64,000 nucleotides of DNA from Breoghania sp. Its GTDB lineage: Bacteria; Pseudomonadota; Alphaproteobacteria; Rhizobiales; Stappiaceae. Shown in pieces: positions 1,352-9,776 of the stretch (the first letter of the stretch is position 1; each line of letters begins with the position of its first letter). The position numbers and the translations under genes were made by a program. The stretch is taken from positions 518,228-582,227 of the forward strand of contig CAXXGA010000001.1 in assembly GCA_963678585.2 (NCBI GenBank), given 5' to 3'. Below the pieces are notes generated by a model, which worked only from the letters and a program-made list of their open reading frames with translations, did not search any database and was not told where the DNA came from.

Positions 1352-2809
1352 TCAGTGCATCTGCTCGCGCAGAAACTCCAGGAACTTCGTATTCGTGCCG
1401 TGGGCGACGTTCACACGGATGGCCGTCATCCCGGAAGGAGAACGGTCGGGACTGAACACGCTTCCCGGCGCAATAAAGATGCTTTTTTCGGCCGCGCGGC
1501 GCACCAATTCCAACTCGTCGAGCTTTTTCGGGAAGCGCGCCCAGACATAGAAGCCCGGTGTGACGGCTTGCCGCACCGTCATCCCAACATCCTCCAGCTC
1601 GGCGATTGTCGCCTTGTGTGCCTTTTCCACTTGAGCGCGCAGTCGCCGCAAATGGCGCAGATATTGGCCACCTTGAATGAGATTGAAGACGAAACGCTCC
1701 ACATAGTCGGAACTCGCGACCGTGGTCAGCATCTTCAAATTCGTCAAAGCAGAGATGGTGTCCGGATTTCCTGTGACATATCCGCAGCGCAAACCCGCCG
1801 ACAAAGTCTTCGAGAATGTTCCAATATACAGAACTCGCTTGAGCTGATCGAGCGCGGCAAGGCGGGGCATCGTGGCCGGAACGATGTCCGCGAGTGCGTC
1901 ATTTTCGACAATGAGAAAACCCCAGCGCTCCGCAAGCTGCATCAGGCCGAAGGCCACCGCCGGGGACAATGTGCTGCCGGTGGGGTTGTGAACCAGCGAC
2001 TGGGTGAAAAACACCTTGGGCCGATGGAGCGCGAGCTTTTCGTTCAGATCCCCCAGATCCGGACCGTCCGGGCCTCGCCGCACCCCGACAATACGGGCCT
2101 TGGCCAGCGTCAGCTTGCCGAAAAGCGGGTAATAGCCTGGATCGTCTACGAAAACCGTGTCGCCGGGCTCGATCAGGTGGCGCACGATAAGGTCCAGCGC
2201 GTGATTGGCCCCGTGGGTGAGCAGAATGCCGTCCGGCGCCACATTGATGGAGCGTTCCAGCAGCATCATCCTGAGCCGGCTGCGCAAGGGGCCGTACCCC
2301 CAAGCACTGCCGTAGCCGAACATCGTCGCATTCGGATCGGCGGAGCGGAAACTGGAAAAATAGCGTTTGAGTTCAGAACCTTCCGCCCAGAACGGCGGAG
2401 GGCGCCCATCGCCGGGGCGCACTTCATAATGCTGTTCGAGCTGCTCCTGGAGCAGCGAAACCACGTCAATGGCGGAGGCCACATGGGGCGGCGGCTGGTT
2501 TGCGGGCGGGATATTAAACTGGGCGACGTAATAGCCGGAACCGGGCCGCGCCTCCAGAAGCCCCTGGGCGACGAGACGGTCGTAGGCTTCGGCCATGGTG
2601 TTCTTCGATACGCCATGTGCGCGCGCTGCTTCACGCACGGACGGCAACCGCTCACCGGGCTTGAAAGCGCCCGCCGAAAGCAAACGGCTGACCTGTTCGA
2701 CAATCCGCCCGGCTCGCGTAAGCCTTGATTTTCCAACGGTTTCCGCGTCGGAATGCCGCACTTCTGCCGTAGATGGCCCCTCTCTGCTATCTATGATTGT
2801 GCCACCCAT
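1352..2809 (-). CDS. MocR/GabR-family transcription regulator (GntR wHTH plus PLP-binding aminotransferase-like domain)
   Basis: GERLPSVREAA...GVSKNTMAEAY...ARPGSGYYV wHTH; PLP lysine motif YIGTFSKTLSAGLRCG. Start uncertain (2809 ATG or 2830). Confidence 0.9.
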   Translation of the reverse strand: MGGTIIDSREGPSTAEVRHSDAETVGKSRLTRAGRIVEQVSRLLSAGAFKPGERLPSVREAARAHGVSKNTMAEAYDRLVAQGLLEARPGSGYYVAQFNIPPANQPPPHVASAIDVVSLLQEQLEQHYEVRPGDGRPPPFWAEGSELKRYFSSFRSADPNATMFGYGSAWGYGPLRSRLRMMLLERSINVAPDGILLTHGANHALDLIVRHLIEPGDTVFVDDPGYYPLFGKLTLAKARIVGVRRGPDGPDLGDLNEKLALHRPKVFFTQSLVHNPTGSTLSPAVAFGLMQLAERWGFLIVENDALADIVPATMPRLAALDQLKRVLYIGTFSKTLSAGLRCGYVTGNPDTISALTNLKMLTTVASSDYVERFVFNLIQGGQYLRHLRRLRAQVEKAHKATIAELEDVGMTVRQAVTPGFYVWARFPKKLDELELVRRAAEKSIFIAPGSVFSPDRSPSGMTAIRVNVAHGTNTKFLEFLREQMH

Positions 2810-2861
2810 TTCTCTGGGACAGTCATGCAAATTGTCGTCTGAACTGTCCCTTGATTGTCCC
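2796..2861. promoter_or_regulatory. Repeated (A)(T/C)TGTCCC-type motifs in the divergent MocR/TRAP promoter region; candidate MocR operator
   Basis: GGGACAGT (2816-2823) is the exact reverse complement of ACTGTCCC (2843-2850); direct variants ATTGTCGT (2831), ATTGTCCC (2854), ATTGTGCC (2796). Confidence 0.55.
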
Positions 2862-2933
2862 CCCTCTTTTTATGACACTTTCGGCCGAACAACAATCACT
2901 GTGCATGACTTAAAGCCGTTCTGGGAGGTACTT

Positions 2934-3968
2934 ATGACGAACATAAACCGTCGCCATTTTCTGACCGCTTCCACGCTGGGTGGAGCAGCTTCTCTTGCCA
3001 TGCCAGCCGTTGCGAACGCTGCCGACAAGGTGCAGTGGCGCATGCAGGCCCTTTGGGATGGCGGCACCACGCCTTACGAATTCGAGAAGAAGTTCGTCGC
3101 ACGTGTTGCCGAACTCACCGAAGGCAATTTCGAAATCAAGCTGTTCTCGGCAGGCCAGATCGTTCCGGCCAACCAGGCCTTCGATGCGGTGCGCAGCGGC
3201 GCCTTCCAGATGATGAAAACCTTCGACGGCTACGAAGCTGGCAAGATCCCATCTTTCGCCTTTACATCGACCATCCCCTTCGGCTTCCCCGAGTCCGATC
3301 AGTACGAGGCCTGGTTCTATGAACTCGGCGGCCTCGACATGGCTCGGGAAGCCTATGCCAAGGCGGGCCTGTTCTACATCGCGCCCACCGTCTACGGCCA
3401 GGAACCGATCCACTCCACCATCAAGATGGAGAGCATCGCGGACATGGCCGGCAAGAAAGGCCGCTTCGTAGGCCTCGCTTCCGCCGTCATGGGCGACCTC
3501 GGCGTGGCCGTCACGCCGATGGCTACGGCGGAAGTCTATACGGGTCTGGAAAAGGGCCTGATCGACTTCGCCGACCGCGGCGACCTCACCGCCAATTTCG
3601 AGGCGGGGCTCGCCGAAGTCGCGAAGTACCTGATCCTGCCGGGCGTGCACCAGCCGACCACGGCGACCAGCTATGTCGCCAATCAGGCCGCCTACAACGC
3701 CCTGCCGGACGCCTACAAGGCGGCGCTTGCCGTCGCAGCGCGTGAAATCTCCGGCTCGCTGCGCCAGCACATCCTCGTGCAGGACACCATCGTGCTCACG
3801 AAATATCGGGAAGCCGGCGTCGAGATCATCAATCTCGATCCGTCCGATATTTCCTCCAACCGCGCAAAGGCGGTGGATTCCTGGAAGAAGGCGACCAAGG
3901 GCGATCCCCTGGCGACGAAGATCGTCGACAGCCAGGTCACCTTCATGCAGTCGCTCGGCCTGCTCTGA
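2934..3968 (+). CDS. dctP: TRAP transporter substrate-binding protein (DctP family, TakP/monocarboxylate-like), Tat signal
   Basis: SD GGAGG before ATG 2934; N-terminus MTNINRRHFL...ANA; GNFEIKLFSAGQIVP, GKKGRFVG (conserved Arg), EVYTGLEKGLID. Confidence 0.9.
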   Translation: MTNINRRHFLTASTLGGAASLAMPAVANAADKVQWRMQALWDGGTTPYEFEKKFVARVAELTEGNFEIKLFSAGQIVPANQAFDAVRSGAFQMMKTFDGYEAGKIPSFAFTSTIPFGFPESDQYEAWFYELGGLDMAREAYAKAGLFYIAPTVYGQEPIHSTIKMESIADMAGKKGRFVGLASAVMGDLGVAVTPMATAEVYTGLEKGLIDFADRGDLTANFEAGLAEVAKYLILPGVHQPTTATSYVANQAAYNALPDAYKAALAVAAREISGSLRQHILVQDTIVLTKYREAGVEIINLDPSDISSNRAKAVDSWKKATKGDPLATKIVDSQVTFMQSLGLL

Positions 3969-4060: not shown

Positions 4061-4597
4061 ATGCAAAAATTCTGCGATTTTGTTACCGGCCTCAACAGGC
4101 TGCTGTTCGCGTTCGCCGCGATGATTATTTTCGCCGTTGTCCCGATTCTGCTCTACGAGGTCATTGCACGTTACGCCTTCGACGCCCCCACCGTGTGGGC
4201 GATGGAAGCGAGTACGCTGATTTTCGGACCGCATTTCATGCTTGCAGGCCCTTATCTGCTGCATCTGCGCGGGCATGTGGCGGTCGACATCCTGAGCGAG
4301 AAGGCGCAAGGCCCGGCCAAGCGCGCCATCGAGATCTTCGCCTATATCGTTATCGCCATCTTCGCGGGCGTCTTCGCCAAGGTCAGTTGGCCGCTGGCGG
4401 TCAATGCCTGGTCGCTCGGCGAGACGAGTTTCTCCGCCTGGAACCCGCCGATCTGGTGGATGAAGTTCATCGCCCCCTTCGCCTTTGCGATGATGTTTGC
4501 CCAGGCGCTGGCGGAAGCCGCTCAGGCCCTCTTCGTTCCGGACCAAGATAAAGAGGCTGCGCCCAACGGGGCCAAGGCCAATGGGGAGGCACACTGA
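4061..4597 (+). CDS. dctQ: TRAP transporter small permease
   Basis: Four hydrophobic segments; EVIARYAF..PTVWAME, HVAVDIL motifs; lies between dctP and dctM. Confidence 0.88.
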   Translation: MQKFCDFVTGLNRLLFAFAAMIIFAVVPILLYEVIARYAFDAPTVWAMEASTLIFGPHFMLAGPYLLHLRGHVAVDILSEKAQGPAKRAIEIFAYIVIAIFAGVFAKVSWPLAVNAWSLGETSFSAWNPPIWWMKFIAPFAFAMMFAQALAEAAQALFVPDQDKEAAPNGAKANGEAH

Positions 4598-5910
4598 TGG
4601 GCTCCGAATCCGTCCTTGCCATCATGTTTGCAAGCCTCGTCGGCCTTCTGCTGACCGGCGTACCGCTGGCCTTCACGCTCGGCGCGCTGGCACTCCTGTT
4701 CACCATCACCTTGTGGGGACAGGCGGCGCTCACCGTCACCGTGCTCAATCTCTTCGACACGATGCACTCGGAATCGCTTCTGGCGATCCCGCTCTACGTG
4801 ATGATGGCGAGCGTGCTGCAACGTTCCGGCGTGATCGAAAGCCTCTACAAGGCGATGGAAATGTGGTCGCGCCGCCTGCCGGGCGGGCTTGCGGTCGGCA
4901 CCATCGCCATCTGCACGATCATCGCCGCCATGACCGGCATCGTGGGCGCCGCCGTCGCGGCCATGGGCCTGCTCGCGCTGCCCTCCATGCTGAAGCGCAA
5001 TTACAGCCCGGAACTCGCCATCGGCACCATTTGCGCGGGCGGCACGCTGGGCATCCTGATCCCCCCCTCCGTCATCACCATCGTCTATGCGGTGACGGCG
5101 CAGGCCTCCATCGGGCAGATGTTCATCGCCGGCGTCGCACCGGGGCTCCTGCTGGCCTCGCTCTATATCGGCTACATCGTTCTGCGCGCGGCGCTGAACC
5201 CGAAGCTCGCACCGCGCCCGCCTCACGAGGAAGACATCACGTGGGAAATGCGGGTTGCCTCGCTGAAATCGCTTGTGCTGCCGATGCTCATCATCTTCGG
5301 CGTGCTTGGAACTATCTACATGGGCATCGCGACGCCGACCGAGGCCGCGGCCGTGGGCGTTGCGCTTGCCTTCGGCTCCGCAGCCCTGGAGCGACATCTC
5401 AATTTCGATCTCTTGCAGGGCGTCGCCTTCGACGTGGTCAAGGTGACGACGATGATCCTCTGGATCACCATCGGCGCGCGCGCCTTCGTCGCCATCTTCA
5501 CCGGCACGGGCGGAGCCGACTTCCTGCTCGGTTTCATCGAGAACCTCGACGCCAACCGCTGGGTCGTGCTGGCGGTGATGCTGGCGATCCTGTTCTTCCT
5601 CGGCATGTTCCTGGATGAGATCGGCATCATCCTGCTGTGCGTGCCGGTGTTTCTGCCGGTCATCGATTTCCTCGATTTCGACCGGCTGTGGTTCGGCATC
5701 CTGTTCCTGGTCTCCGCGCAGATGGCCTATATCTCCCCGCCCTTCGGATACACGCTTTTCTACATGAAGGGCGTCCTTCCCGAAGGCATCGGCATGGGCA
5801 CCGTCTATCGCGCGATCATTCCCTTCATCCTGTTACAGGCATTTGGGATTTTGATCTGCGCGGCCTTCCCGGAACTGGTGCTGTGGCTTCCCAACTCCAT
5901 GATGAAATAA
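4597..5910 (+). CDS. dctM: TRAP transporter large permease
   Basis: LLAIPLY, GGLAVGTI, GTICAGGTLGILIPPS, TPTEAA, ISPPFG motifs; TGATG coupling to dctQ. Confidence 0.92.
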   Translation: MGSESVLAIMFASLVGLLLTGVPLAFTLGALALLFTITLWGQAALTVTVLNLFDTMHSESLLAIPLYVMMASVLQRSGVIESLYKAMEMWSRRLPGGLAVGTIAICTIIAAMTGIVGAAVAAMGLLALPSMLKRNYSPELAIGTICAGGTLGILIPPSVITIVYAVTAQASIGQMFIAGVAPGLLLASLYIGYIVLRAALNPKLAPRPPHEEDITWEMRVASLKSLVLPMLIIFGVLGTIYMGIATPTEAAAVGVALAFGSAALERHLNFDLLQGVAFDVVKVTTMILWITIGARAFVAIFTGTGGADFLLGFIENLDANRWVVLAVMLAILFFLGMFLDEIGIILLCVPVFLPVIDFLDFDRLWFGILFLVSAQMAYISPPFGYTLFYMKGVLPEGIGMGTVYRAIIPFILLQAFGILICAAFPELVLWLPNSMMK

Positions 5911-5932: not shown

Positions 5933-7210
5933 ATGAGCGACGCGAAATCGTCCCGTATCGAAGGCCTTCACAAGATGTCCCCGGCCGAGCGCCTGCAGGC
6001 CGTGGCGAAACAGGCCGAGCTTGGCAATGCCGCAATCGATAGCCTGACCGCAGCCGCAGAGGGCCAGATCGAGCTGGCGGACCGCATGGTCGAAAACGCC
6101 ATCTCCTCCATGGCCATTCCCATCGGCGTCGCCACCAACATGGTGGTGGACGGCAGGGAAGTTCTCGTGCCCATGGCGACGGAGGAATCCTCCGTCATCG
6201 CGGCCGTCTGCAACTCCGCCAAACGTTGCCGGTCGACCGGCGGGTTCAAGACCTCGGCGAGCGGCCCCGTCATGGCGGCCCAGATCCAGCTTCTGGGCGC
6301 CAGCGACCCGGCCAACGTGCGCCTCAAGGTCTATGAGCACTACGACGAGATCCGCACCATCTGCGACGAGACCGATCCACTTCTGGTGAAGTTCGGCGGG
6401 GGTTTCCGCGATCTCGACATTCGTGTCATCGACACCGACGAAGGCCCGATGACCATCGTCCACATCATCGTGGACACCCGCGATGCGATGGGGGCCAATG
6501 CGGTCAACTCCATGGCGGAGACCCTTGCGCCGCGCCTGGCCGAATGGACCGGCGCGCGCACGCTCCTGCGCATTCTGACCAATCTCGCCGACCGCCGCGT
6601 CGTGCGCGCCCGCGCCGTGTGGCCGGTGAACGAGATCGGTGGCGAGCAGGTGCGCGACGACATGCTGTCGGCCTATCACTTCGCCGATGCCGATCCCTAC
6701 CGTGCGGCGACCCACAACAAGGGCATCATGAACGGTATTTCGGCGGTCGTGCTGGCCACGGGCAATGACACCCGCGCCATCGAGGCGGGCGCACACGCTT
6801 TTGCCGCGCGCGACGGCTGGTACCGTTCCATGTCGCGCTGGGAAGAGGATGCGCAAGGCAATCTCGTCGGCATTCTGGAAATGCCGATGGCCGTCGGCCT
6901 CATCGGCGGGGCGACCAAGATTCACCCGACCGCGCAGGCCAATATCGCCGTTCTCGGCGTGGAGACCGCCGATGCGCTCGCCCGGATCATCGTCTCCGTC
7001 GGCCTTGCGCAGAATTTCGGTGCGATGCGCGCGCTGGCGACGACCGGTATCCAGAAAGGCCACATGGCGCTTCATGCGCAGAATGTGGCGCTGATGGTGG
7101 GCGCCGTCGGCGACGAGATCGATCTGGTCGCCTCGGAACTGAAGGCGCTGGGCAAGGTGCGTCAGGATCTGGCGGAGGAAATCCTCCTGCGGATCCGCGC
7201 TGGCAAGTGA
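5933..7210 (+). CDS. mvaA: Class II (degradative-type) hydroxymethylglutaryl-CoA reductase
   Basis: MVENAI, VPMATEESSVIAA (Glu), DAMGAN, THNKGIMNG (Lys), GNDTRA (Asp), GIQKGHMALH (His): all class II HMGR catalytic motifs present. Confidence 0.93.
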   Translation: MSDAKSSRIEGLHKMSPAERLQAVAKQAELGNAAIDSLTAAAEGQIELADRMVENAISSMAIPIGVATNMVVDGREVLVPMATEESSVIAAVCNSAKRCRSTGGFKTSASGPVMAAQIQLLGASDPANVRLKVYEHYDEIRTICDETDPLLVKFGGGFRDLDIRVIDTDEGPMTIVHIIVDTRDAMGANAVNSMAETLAPRLAEWTGARTLLRILTNLADRRVVRARAVWPVNEIGGEQVRDDMLSAYHFADADPYRAATHNKGIMNGISAVVLATGNDTRAIEAGAHAFAARDGWYRSMSRWEEDAQGNLVGILEMPMAVGLIGGATKIHPTAQANIAVLGVETADALARIIVSVGLAQNFGAMRALATTGIQKGHMALHAQNVALMVGAVGDEIDLVASELKALGKVRQDLAEEILLRIRAGK

Positions 7211-8118
7211 GCGGCACCGTGACATCCGATACCGTCACCATCGTGGAGGTCGGCCCGCGGGACGGCCTCCAGGCCCACAAGGAACCGATCTCGACTGAAG
7301 CGCGGATCGGGCTGATCCAACGTCTTCGAAAGGCCGGCGTCACGCGCATGGAGGTCGGCTCCTTCGTCTCGCCCAAGGCCGTGCCGCGCATGGCGGATAC
7401 GGCGGAGGTGATGGCCGCCGTCGGCTCCGCCTCGCAAGCCGACGACATGGTCCTTGTCGCCAATGCCCGCGGACTCGATCAGGCGATTGCGGAAGGCGCG
7501 CGCACCATTGCGGTCTTCACGGCGGCCAGCGACGGCTTTGCGGAAAAGAACATCGGCTGCACGGTCGATGCCTCGCTGGAACGCTTTGCGCCTATCGTGA
7601 CACGGGCGCGGGAAAACGGCATCACCGTGCGCGGCTATATTTCCACGATCACCGACTGCCCCTATTCCGGCTCCGTCGAACCGGACGCCGTGGTCCGCGT
7701 CGCCAATGCGCTGACCGAGATGGGCTGCGGCGAGATTTCGCTTGGCGAGACGCTGGGCCGCGCCACTCCACGGCGGATCGCCGCCGTCATCGAGGCGGTG
7801 GCGAAAGACGTGCCCATGAGCAGCATTGCCGCCCATTTCCACGACACCTACGGCATGGGCGTCGCCAATGTGTGGGAAGCGGTGCGCCTCGGCGTGCGCA
7901 CGGTGGATGCGGCGGCAGGCGGTCTCGGCGGCTGCCCGTTTGCGCCCGGCGCAACCGGCAATGTGGCGAGCGAAGACGTCATCTACATGCTGCACGGTCA
8001 GGGCTATGAGACCGGCATAGATATGGATGCGCTTCTGGATGCGGCGGCCTATTGCAAGGACGCCATGGGCATCGCCCCGGTGAGCCGGGTCTATCACGCC
8101 ATCCGGCGCTGCATCTGA
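7207..8118 (+). CDS. mvaB: Hydroxymethylglutaryl-CoA lyase
   Basis: EVGPRDGLQ, EVGSFVSPKAVP, HFHDTYG, GLGGCPFAPGATGNVA; GTGA overlap with mvaA stop. Confidence 0.93.
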   Translation: MSGTVTSDTVTIVEVGPRDGLQAHKEPISTEARIGLIQRLRKAGVTRMEVGSFVSPKAVPRMADTAEVMAAVGSASQADDMVLVANARGLDQAIAEGARTIAVFTAASDGFAEKNIGCTVDASLERFAPIVTRARENGITVRGYISTITDCPYSGSVEPDAVVRVANALTEMGCGEISLGETLGRATPRRIAAVIEAVAKDVPMSSIAAHFHDTYGMGVANVWEAVRLGVRTVDAAAGGLGGCPFAPGATGNVASEDVIYMLHGQGYETGIDMDALLDAAAYCKDAMGIAPVSRVYHAIRRCI

Positions 8119-8182: not shown

Positions 8183-8626
8183 CTATTCGGCGGCGCTGCT
8201 TTCTCTCCATTCCAGAACGAGCTGGGTCTGCGTGACGACCGCACACAGCTTGCCGTCGCCGCGGGTCACCTTCACTTCCCAGATCATTGTGGTACGCCCG
8301 ACATGGTAGGGCGTGACCGTGGCGCGGGCGATGTCCCCGATACGGATCGGGCGCATGAAATTGGTCTTGCTCTCCAACGTCACCGTGCTCTGGCCTTCGC
8401 CGAGATTCAGAAAGGTGGCCGTGCCGCAGACATTGTCGGCAAGCGACATCAGCGCCCCGCCGTGCAGCACGCCGTTGCGGTTGCCCAGCCACGGCTCAAC
8501 CACCATTTCGCCCACCACTTTTTCCCGGCTGTGAGAGACCGTGCGCATCTTCAAGGCGTCCGCAAAGGGAGACAGCGTATCCGCCACCTGCTGCATCCGG
8601 TCTTCTTCGTCCATCGTCACCGTCAT
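8183..8626 (-). CDS. PaaI/hotdog-fold acyl-CoA thioesterase
   Basis: NRNGVLHGGALMSLADNVCG, TLESKTNFMRP; start likely 8626 or 8614. Confidence 0.85.
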   Translation of the reverse strand: MTVTMDEEDRMQQVADTLSPFADALKMRTVSHSREKVVGEMVVEPWLGNRNGVLHGGALMSLADNVCGTATFLNLGEGQSTVTLESKTNFMRPIRIGDIARATVTPYHVGRTTMIWEVKVTRGDGKLCAVVTQTQLVLEWRESSAAE

Positions 8627-8888
8627 TCGACCTGCCCGTTTCCGTTTTCTGCCGCAAGGTTTAGGACGCGCGCGGGCCCTTGGCAAAGCTTTTCGACCGA
8701 TCGGAAACGTGCATTTTCGCTCTCGATACACCACACAGGCGAAACGGCACTGGTGTCTCAGGGGCAGGTAACGCTAATGTCCTGCACAAGACGATCTGTC
8801 ATCTGAAAAACGGGTCAAAAAAGACACGGCATTCGCCGCGCGGGAGGAGTGCGGCAATCGGACCCTTGGGGAAATCGGGAGGAACTAC

Positions 8889-9776
8889 ATGAGCAGCATC
8901 GCATTCATCGGCCTTGGCAATATGGGCCTGCCCATGGCCATCAATCTGGCCAAGGCGGGCCACAGCGTGACGGCCTTCGATACGGTGGCAGAGGCCGTCG
9001 CGAAAGCGGAAGCCGAAGGCATCAAGGCGGCGCCGGATGCTGCCTCCGCCGTGGCGGACGCCGAGTTCGTCGTCACCATGCTGCCGAACGGCCAGATCGT
9101 GCTGAAGGTCTACGAGGCAATCGTTCCCGCCGCCAAGGCGGGCGCGGTGCTGATCGACTGCTCCACCATCGACGTAGAAAGCGCGCGCAAGGCCCATGCG
9201 ATGTGCGATGCGGCGGGGCTCCTGTCGCTCGATGCGCCGGTTTCAGGCGGCACGGGCGGGGCGGCGGCAGGGACGCTGACCTTCATGACGGGCGGAAAAC
9301 GCGAAGCCTTCGACAAGGCGAGCCCGATCCTCGACGTGATGGGCGGCAAGCTCGTCTATTGCGGCGAAGGCGGTGCGGGACAGGCGGCCAAGATCTGCAA
9401 CAACATGCTGCTCGGCATTTCCATGATCGGGGCCTGCGAAGCCTTCGCACTGGCCGAAAAGCTCGGCCTTGACGCGCAGGCCGCCTTCGACGTGATCTCC
9501 ACTTCCTCAGGTTATTGCTGGTCGGTCAACACCTATTGCCCGGTTCCCGGCGTCGGCCCGCAAAGCCCCGCCGACAACGGCTACAAGCCCGGGTTTGCGG
9601 CCGAACTGATGGCGAAGGATCTGGGTCTTTCCCAACAGGCCGCAGACGGCACCGGTCAAGCGACGCCGATGGGCGCCCGCGCGCTGGAGCTTTACAGCCG
9701 CTTCCTTGAAGAAGGCGGCAAGGGCAAGGATTTCTCCGGCATGATCGAATATCTCAAAACCGCCTCGCGCGCGTAG
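8889..9776 (+). CDS. mmsB: 3-hydroxyisobutyrate dehydrogenase
   Basis: IAFIGLGNMGLPMA, DAPVSGG..GA.AGTLTFM.GG, AKICNNMLLG, YCPVPG, YKPGFAAELM.KDL. Confidence 0.9.
   Translation: MSSIAFIGLGNMGLPMAINLAKAGHSVTAFDTVAEAVAKAEAEGIKAAPDAASAVADAEFVVTMLPNGQIVLKVYEAIVPAAKAGAVLIDCSTIDVESARKAHAMCDAAGLLSLDAPVSGGTGGAAAGTLTFMTGGKREAFDKASPILDVMGGKLVYCGEGGAGQAAKICNNMLLGISMIGACEAFALAEKLGLDAQAAFDVISTSSGYCWSVNTYCPVPGVGPQSPADNGYKPGFAAELMAKDLGLSQQAADGTGQATPMGARALELYSRFLEEGGKGKDFSGMIEYLKTASRA

Follow-up and report, generated by a model that had tools for sequence, protein, structure and literature searches.

MocR-family regulators such as GabR of B. subtilis and PdxR of B. clausii join a wHTH domain via a linker to an AAT-like domain, act on two or three boxes that lie between divergent genes and combine direct with inverted orientation, and are autoregulated. 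GabR, PdxR, and TauR are activators, and repression is not the default of the MocR family. EnuR/EhuR, the MocR-type repressor of ectoine catabolism, acts locally on a cluster for uptake and catabolism; in some species a TRAP transporter is part of this cluster. EnuR is released by its inducers N-alpha-acetyl-DABA and DABA, amines that react with PLP. Characterised MocR regulators all use PLP alone or PLP and an amine (PMC10450172). In 2016, Suvorova and Rodionov reconstructed 825 MocR regulons in silico, assigning tentative functions to only 38 of 86 MocR groups (PMC5320631). One group in their supplementary table, 'Daci_0288', has a regulon of COG1257 MvaA, TRAP FcbT1-3, and the transcription factor itself, with Silicibacter pomeroyi SPOA0164 (Rhodobacterales), Oceanicola batsensis, Bordetella petrii Bpet3338, and Delftia Daci_0288 as members; it is listed without function or effector and is undiscussed in the main text (PMC5320631). 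Literature searches on MocR/TRAP and mevalonate, mevalonate catabolism, and SPOA0163-0167 turned up no experiments with either the regulator or the transporter. The HMG-CoA reductases of R. pomeroyi, B. cenocepacia, and Delftia have already been studied biochemically. The R. pomeroyi enzyme prefers NADH (PMC12292504).

We analyzed a 64,000-nucleotide stretch of DNA from Breoghania sp., referred to in its entirety as the window. It carries a mocR-type regulator gene on the minus strand (1352-2809), and ORF coordinates bear out the divergent orientation to dctP (2934-3968, plus strand) that a preliminary description had reported. The gene encodes 485 amino acids from an ATG at 2807-2809, the likely start in an ORF extending over 1352-2830 (minus strand); this start is uncertain, with TTG (2828-2830) and GTG (2762-2764) also possible and variable starts in orthologues. 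The protein comprises a GntR wHTH (2525-2710, minus strand; PF00392 at 59 bits, the cut-off being 27, residues 41-102 of a 492-residue frame), a linker of ~65 residues, and an aminotransferase-like (fold-type I) effector domain (1373-2326, minus strand; PF00155, 100 bits, residues 169-486), whose best solved relatives in a PDB search are PH0207/2-aminoadipate aminotransferase, GabR, and PdxR. An orthologue scan yielded 80 MocR loci with 52-79% identity in Alpha- and Betaproteobacteria. The recognition-helix motif VSKNTM is invariant in 79 of these 80 orthologues, and the same holds for seven effector domain residues, namely K334, S333, R341, D304, N275, Y226, and R465. K334 (485-residue numbering; codon 1808-1810, minus strand; motif TFSK) aligns to the catalytic lysine of PH0207 and is thus the PLP lysine of the FSK motif noted in the preliminary description. 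By alignment, K334 would form the Schiff base, S333 and R341 would contact the phosphate and D304 the pyridine nitrogen, while Y226 is equivalent to Tyr205 and R465 to the aminotransferase arginine that binds the alpha-carboxylate. K334, S333, R341, D304, and Y226 correspond to GabR K312, S311, R319, D279, and Y205, so that the Lys/Ser/Arg/Asp/Tyr205-equivalent set of GabR and PdxR is conserved; these pocket equivalences derive from the PH0207 alignment and published residue lists (PMC10450172), the PDB alignment to PdxR covering its N-terminal part only. The position of GabR Tyr281 and PdxR Tyr278 differs, being Leu or Phe across the whole clade, and an R131-x-G-D-G-R-P-x-P-x-x-W-x-E stretch at the start of the effector domain is likewise invariant in the clade. 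Given the invariance of the PLP set and of the carboxylate arginine, the effector domain should still hold PLP and bind a carboxylate.

The divergent operon starts with three TRAP transporter genes, dctP, encoding the solute-binding protein (PF03480; ribosome binding site GGGAGG at 2923-2928), and dctQ (4061-4597) and dctM (4597-5910), encoding the membrane subunits (both plus strand; PF04290, PF06808, TIGR00786). The closest solved relative of DctP is the lactate-binding TTHA0766 of T. thermophilus, followed by TakP-type binders of 2-oxo acids. Next in line are mvaA (5933-7210, plus strand) for an NAD-type degradative HMG-CoA reductase (420 bits to TIGR00532, whose cut-off is 260) and mvaB (7207-8118, plus strand), which overlaps mvaA by 4 nt and encodes an HMG-CoA lyase (NF004283, 379 bits against a cut-off of 246). 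In the PDB, MvaA matches 1QAX from P. mevalonii best (435 bits); the enzymes of Delftia and Burkholderia cenocepacia come next. As the genome contains Dxr and no mevalonate kinase, the HMG-CoA reductase is assigned a catabolic role; a degradative reductase and a lyase in a genome devoid of the anabolic pathway indicate mevalonate catabolism of the P. mevalonii mvaAB type. The enzymes are orthologous to those of P. mevalonii, but in Breoghania they share one operon with a TRAP importer under a MocR regulator. The encoded route starts from mevalonate and, via HMG-CoA, yields acetoacetate plus acetyl-CoA, a pathway without any amine. The premise of the preliminary description, a PLP-type MocR facing an amine-less pathway, thus holds at the level of domains, residues, and pathway enzymes. 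The genome encodes no HMG-CoA lyase other than MvaB (a single match above cut-off genome-wide), and ivd/MCC-like genes are located on another contig. The replicon that bears the locus is 737 kb long and belongs to a Breoghania-like genome of the Stappiaceae. On the other flank of mocR, a convergent peptide-type ABC operon ends with OppD, 47 nt from the mocR stop codon. Neither OppD nor the thioesterase (8183-8734) and HIBADH (8889-9776) genes that adjoin the dctPQM-mvaA-mvaB operon are conserved beside orthologous loci, and all three were discarded as parts of the system.

The mocR/dctP intergenic region measures 124 nt from start codon to start codon and harbors five boxes of the A(C/T)TGTCCC type. 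Box 1 (ATTGTGCC, 2796-2803, plus strand) has one mismatch to the consensus and, should translation begin at the ATG at 2809, would fall in mocR codons 3-5; the N-terminal 'GGTII' of the protein is box 1 read through as translation. Together with box 2 (2816-2823, minus strand; GGGACAGT on the plus strand, which is ACTGTCCC on the minus strand) it forms an inverted repeat with a 12-nt spacer. Box 3 (ACTGTCCC, 2843-2850, plus strand) follows 19 nt after box 2 and is the best-conserved box (AACTGTCCCTTG), and box 4 (ATTGTCCC, 2854-2861, plus strand) is a direct repeat positioned one helical turn further on. A weak fifth box (2872-2879, minus strand; ATGACACT on the plus strand) has the opposite orientation to boxes 3 and 4; it reads (A/T)(G/T)GACAGT in orthologues, within a conserved 'tta(t/g)GACA(g/a)TTT'. 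The layout -> N12 <- N19 -> N3 -> N10 <- covers 84 of the 124 intergenic nt. As with GabR and PdxR, direct and inverted repeats are combined between divergent genes, but there are five boxes instead of two or three.

The number of exact AYTGTCCC matches in the window is unremarkable (4 observed versus 2.8 expected), yet three of the four fall inside 46 nt, and the mocR/dctP intergenic region is the sole site in the 4.6-Mb genome with at least three AYYGTCCC boxes inside 100 bp. An operator profile built from the orthologous loci returned a single significant match in the genome, again the mocR/dctP region (E 8.6e-18), and no second operator elsewhere, including the vicinity of the peptide ABC operon. 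An exact palindrome search with AYYGTCCC-N9-14-GGGACRRT had no match in the genome, missing the operator itself because of the mismatch in box 1. A consensus scan detected no sigma-70 promoter in the intergenic region, and no terminator was found by scanning this region and the mocR 3' end. Since the boxes cover most of the intergenic DNA, both divergent promoters, whose positions are deduced, must overlap them.

Within the family, six genomes with orthologues of 66-77% identity divergent from dctPQM-mvaA(-mvaB) preserve all five boxes, which align position by position as ATTGTCCC-N12-GGGACAGT-N19/20-AC(T/C)GTCCC-TTG-ATTGTCCC-N10/11-(A/T)(G/T)GACAGT. Beyond these relatives, at least three strict TGT(C/A)CC boxes are present in 54 of 76 loci compared with none of 1407 control windows, the box-N10-14-box palindrome is found by strict matching in 45 of the 76, and the operator is kept whether mvaA or dctP is the divergent gene. 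The variant GTACC replaces GTCCC in Bordetella, Bosea, Burkholderia, and Ruegeria. Co-variation of GTCCC/GTACC usage with wHTH residues hinted at positions 73, 93, and 94, but with just five A-type sequences from related lineages behind it this hint was given no weight. Boxes also decay along with the operon. A related Breoghania MAG carries frameshifts and stops throughout the locus, and its boxes 2-4 have degenerated into GGGAAAAT, AATATCCC, and ATTTTTCC; B. corrubedonensis and Nitratireductor indicus have lost the operon and retain an orphan mocR with partly decayed boxes. Erosion of the boxes alongside pseudogenisation or loss of the operon is as expected for a functional operator tied to it. 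The inverted pair and direct variants of A(C/T)TGTCCC in the preliminary description, corresponding to boxes 1-4, are consequently verified as a cluster unique in the genome and conserved in orthologues, to which box 5 is an addition. The boxes are not a chance occurrence and represent a predicted operator. With a wHTH, a linker-joined fold-type I domain, PLP residues, and a predicted operator of TGT boxes near its own gene, the protein has the sequence hallmarks of the MocR/GabR subfamily, whose operators consist of 2-4 direct or inverted TGT-containing boxes; the motif classes of PMC5320631 served as the comparison.

These data also bear on the suggestion, raised in the preliminary description, that MocR controls the convergent peptide-type ABC operon, and on the wider variant in which it controls distant genes, its proximity to TRAP-mvaAB and the repeats being fortuitous. 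Apart from the 47 nt that separate OppD from mocR, nothing connects the two: OppD-like genes do not accompany the orthologues, operator profile and box cluster each occur once in the Breoghania genome, in the mocR/dctP intergenic region, and across the 76 loci the boxes persist whether the divergent gene is mvaA or dctP. We consider this explanation exceedingly improbable and reject control of the ABC operon.

The partner of the regulator was traced through the 80 orthologous loci, whose genera include Stappia, Nitratireductor, Roseibium, Thalassospira, Azorhizobium, Aurantimonas, and Microvirga, and which also span Paracoccus, Rhizobium, Azospirillum, Brucella endophytica, Bosea, and Bordetella. 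The gene for the degradative HMG-CoA reductase, mvaA, adjoins mocR in 78 of them. Three architectures recur. In the first, mocR is divergent from dctPQM-mvaA(-mvaB), as in Breoghania; in the second, it is divergent from mvaA-dctPQM, with mvaB directly downstream of mocR; in the third, it is divergent from an mvaA that precedes either TctA/TctB-like genes or a Liv-type ABC system, at times accompanied by a lactonase of the SMP-30/gluconolactonase type (SGL) or a CoA-transferase. The transporter is therefore exchanged between TRAP, TTT (TctAB), and Liv-type ABC systems while mvaA stays, identifying mvaA and not the TRAP system as the constant partner of mocR. The co-occurrence check proposed in the preliminary description is thereby strongly positive, with the qualification that the transporter is not always of the TRAP type. 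mvaB belongs to the regulon in 41 of the 80 loci, and mocR and mvaB are co-directional and nearly abutting in 23 loci; about half of the regulons consist of transporter and mvaA only. Conserved genes for an aminotransferase, a deaminase, or an amine oxidase are absent from the set. Recruitment of a lactonase would fit with mevalonolactone serving as a source. The pairing was also sampled starting from mvaA: among 400 alphaproteobacterial genomes besides Breoghania sp., 11 encode a degradative HMG-CoA reductase, and mocR is divergent from mvaA in seven of them, the other four mvaA loci having different neighbours, including LysR and TetR regulators. More distant relatives share the pairing. A 40.6%-identical MocR is divergent from HMGR-dctPQM on the megaplasmid of R. 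pomeroyi DSS-3, a 42%-identical MocR is divergent from the HMGR of B. cenocepacia, and at the B. petrii loci MocR proteins with 55-56% identity are divergent from dctPQM-mvaA.

Taken together, operator and gene neighborhood indicate that MocR is very probably a dedicated local regulator of its own gene and of dctPQM-mvaA-mvaB, an operon for taking up and degrading mevalonate (or mevalonolactone). The autoregulation predicted here would parallel that of GabR and PdxR, and the control of a combined uptake and catabolism cluster that of EnuR/EhuR. The pairing of MocR with MvaA and TRAP genes is already catalogued in silico, and the Breoghania protein is an added member of that group: gene context is shared with the loci of R. 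pomeroyi and B. petrii, whose boxes are related, and by sequence and regulon MocR can be assigned to Daci_0288, the R. pomeroyi locus being equated with SPOA0164 by identity and context. Compared with the group, the Breoghania locus differs in placing dctPQM first and in including mvaB. The five-box architecture and the GTCCC/GTACC variants described here go beyond the Daci_0288 listing.

Which ligand MocR responds to was approached via its relationship to characterised family members. Its nearest NCBIfam families are PdxR, YczR, rhizopine MocR, EhuR, and GabR, and its scores remain far under each curated cut-off, with 226 versus 320 bits for PdxR (NF052282), the best match, 174 versus 650 for rhizopine MocR (NF052281), 155 versus 480 for EhuR (NF052286), and 106 versus 600 for GabR (NF052285). 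MocR of Breoghania thus belongs to the family without falling into any of its named types. The rank of PdxR could nevertheless point to PLP alone as ligand, as in PdxR and PtsJ, which would couple mevalonate catabolism to vitamin-B6 status, and PLP is an established MocR effector (PMC10450172). However, pdx or other B6 genes occur in none of the 80 loci, and a physiological logic between B6 and mevalonate is missing. Moreover, the association of MocR with mvaA has persisted over three operon architectures and three families of transporter, for which a pathway-specific signal is expected. We regard PLP alone, or a constitutive repressor or activator independent of any effector, as improbable. 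The effector would be neither GABA nor, probably, PLP alone, which sets MocR apart from GabR and PdxR.

A more serious competitor retains the same locus architecture and assumes that an amine or amino acid reacts with PLP to an external aldimine, the mode known from GabR, TauR, and EnuR; candidates are leucine or a related amino acid, as the preliminary description proposed, or some as yet unrecognised amino compound that the transporter brings in. Characterised MocR effectors are all PLP or PLP-reactive amines (PMC10450172). The invariant PLP set and alpha-carboxylate arginine R465 of the clade are in line with an amine, and a fully conserved PLP/Arg set, being what an amino-acid sensor would keep, speaks against a non-amine effector. 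The leucine idea gains a little in the Breoghania genome, because mvaB provides its sole HMG-CoA lyase and the ivd/MCC-like genes lie elsewhere, so that the operon may also serve leucine breakdown; the presence of mvaB in about half of the orthologous regulons and the Liv-type ABC importer at some loci can be read in the same direction. Leucine catabolism ends in HMG-CoA and does not need mvaA. Clade-wide, the idea accordingly loses ground, since mvaA, unused in leucine catabolism, is the partner always kept, whereas around half of the regulons, consisting of transporter and mvaA only, dispense with mvaB. Further arguments against an amine are the lack of conserved genes for amine-converting enzymes of the three types searched, the affinity of DctP to lactate and 2-oxo-acid binders, and the lactonase recruited at several loci, which points to mevalonolactone. 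A leucine-like inducer hence finds no support across the clade while keeping some appeal for Breoghania itself, and an amine effector in general appears rather unlikely, if still worth considering.

We prefer as effector a carboxylate of the pathway, that is mevalonate, or HMG-CoA/acetoacetate, bound non-covalently beside PLP, a proposal built on analogy to which we assign a little less than an even chance. Aspartate aminotransferase offers a parallel, as amine-less dicarboxylate inhibitors bound non-covalently beside PLP drive its domain closure. To our knowledge, a non-amine effector is without precedent in the MocR family. In contrast to the PLP-reactive inducers of EnuR, the metabolites of the mevalonate pathway carry no amine. 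In its most explicit form, the hydroxy acid mevalonate or its CoA-level products would occupy the aminotransferase-like pocket beside an unreacted PLP-lysine aldimine and switch DNA binding, with no external aldimine formed, and the clade would represent the first MocR sensor with an amino-free effector; we advance this only tentatively.

With respect to the mode of action, one MocR dimer, or two, may bind the boxes through its two wHTH domains and in doing so would occlude both divergent promoters. Most likely, MocR would act as a repressor like EnuR and be released by a conformational change of the effector domain. In the 23 loci in which mocR is co-transcribed or nearly contiguous with the catabolic gene mvaB, the mocR promoter must be inducible, which fits better with an EnuR-like repressor relieved by its inducer than with constitutive autorepression of the GabR type. 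On this basis, we lean modestly towards the EnuR-like mode, and the logic of repression released by an inducer is the one proposed for the Breoghania regulator.

MocR regulators are thought to sense PLP or amines via Schiff-base chemistry, and here a large conserved clade is tied to a nitrogen-free pathway. Judged by genomic context, the association is well supported and consistent with MocR being an ordinary local regulator. Should the effector be an ordinary amine or PLP, the locus would be just one more local MocR regulon. If an amino-free effector holds true, the ligand range of PLP-dependent transcription factors would be widened beyond amines. The MocR-mvaA clade thus provides a clean test case for whether an aminotransferase-like domain can read non-amine ligands, and the defined predicted operator, together with the candidate inducers, offers a handle on whether these bacteria import and burn mevalonate.

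The apparent N-terminus of the MocR-type regulator gene (mocR, 1352-2809, minus strand), MGGTII, encoded at 2796-2809, is a translation of operator box 1 (2796-2803), with relatives reading LGGTVI or MGTISV at this position. It is therefore the DNA, rather than the peptide, that is conserved here, and translation of mocR may really begin further downstream, at a GTG at 2762-2764. In Bordetella, Bosea, Ferrovibrio, Ruegeria and Burkholderia, the TGTCCC/GGGACA operator box is replaced by (C)TGTACC/GGTACAG. Winged helix-turn-helix (wHTH) positions 73 (A to V/I) and 93-94 (YY to FF) differ alongside the TGTACC-type box, with too few independent lineages for a co-variation call; the orthologous loci concerned are L080, L091, L106, L110, L112, L113, L125 and L126. 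An operator-profile match on contig 2 of the Breoghania genome studied here (G000:C2:1665731-1665772) is weak and non-significant (E 0.44). The match precedes a MocR paralogue (C2:1665827-1667179, 34% identity) by ~55 nt and may represent the related operator of that paralogue itself.

Orthologues of mocR (74-78% identity) have lost the adjacent TRAP-mvaAB operon in Breoghania corrubedonensis (L068/L021) and Nitratireductor indicus C115 (L039). Boxes upstream of these orphan regulators are still recognisable, if partly decayed, and a dctP leader remnant is also left in B. corrubedonensis. In the Breoghania sp. MAG MO_035.B22 (L027/L102, G003:C36), stops and frameshifts run throughout the orthologous locus (mocR, dctP, dctM and mvaB), identity is below that of sister genomes, and operator boxes 2-4 are eroded via G/C to A/T changes. 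This copy of the module is apparently dying; the frameshifts could alternatively stem from MAG assembly errors.

The importer adjoining mocR-mvaA shows non-orthologous displacement among TRAP, TctA/TctB-like and Liv-type ABC systems (L074, L059, L077, L079, L095, L056 and L085). An SMP-30/gluconolactonase-type lactonase has been recruited at mocR-mvaA loci, in L056 by insertion between the operator and the other genes it serves, and a CoA-transferase is present in the L085 locus.

The only HMG-CoA lyase above cut-off in this genome is mvaB (7207-8118), and genes for a biotin carboxylase, an acyl-CoA dehydrogenase and an MCC-beta-like carboxyltransferase are scattered over contig 2 (L131, G000:C2:1914000-1933999), with no lyase among them. 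This makes it possible that mvaB, under MocR control, provides the missing final step of leucine/isovalerate catabolism as well. Degradative HMG-CoA reductase, encoded here by mvaA (5933-7210), was found in only 12 of the 401 alphaproteobacterial genomes searched (this genome and 11 of 400 sampled at class level), often on megaplasmids or chromids, as with the 737-kb contig of the window, the R. pomeroyi megaplasmid and N. aquimarinus plasmid p1. Given this rarity and location, degradative HMG-CoA reductase is a patchy accessory trait.
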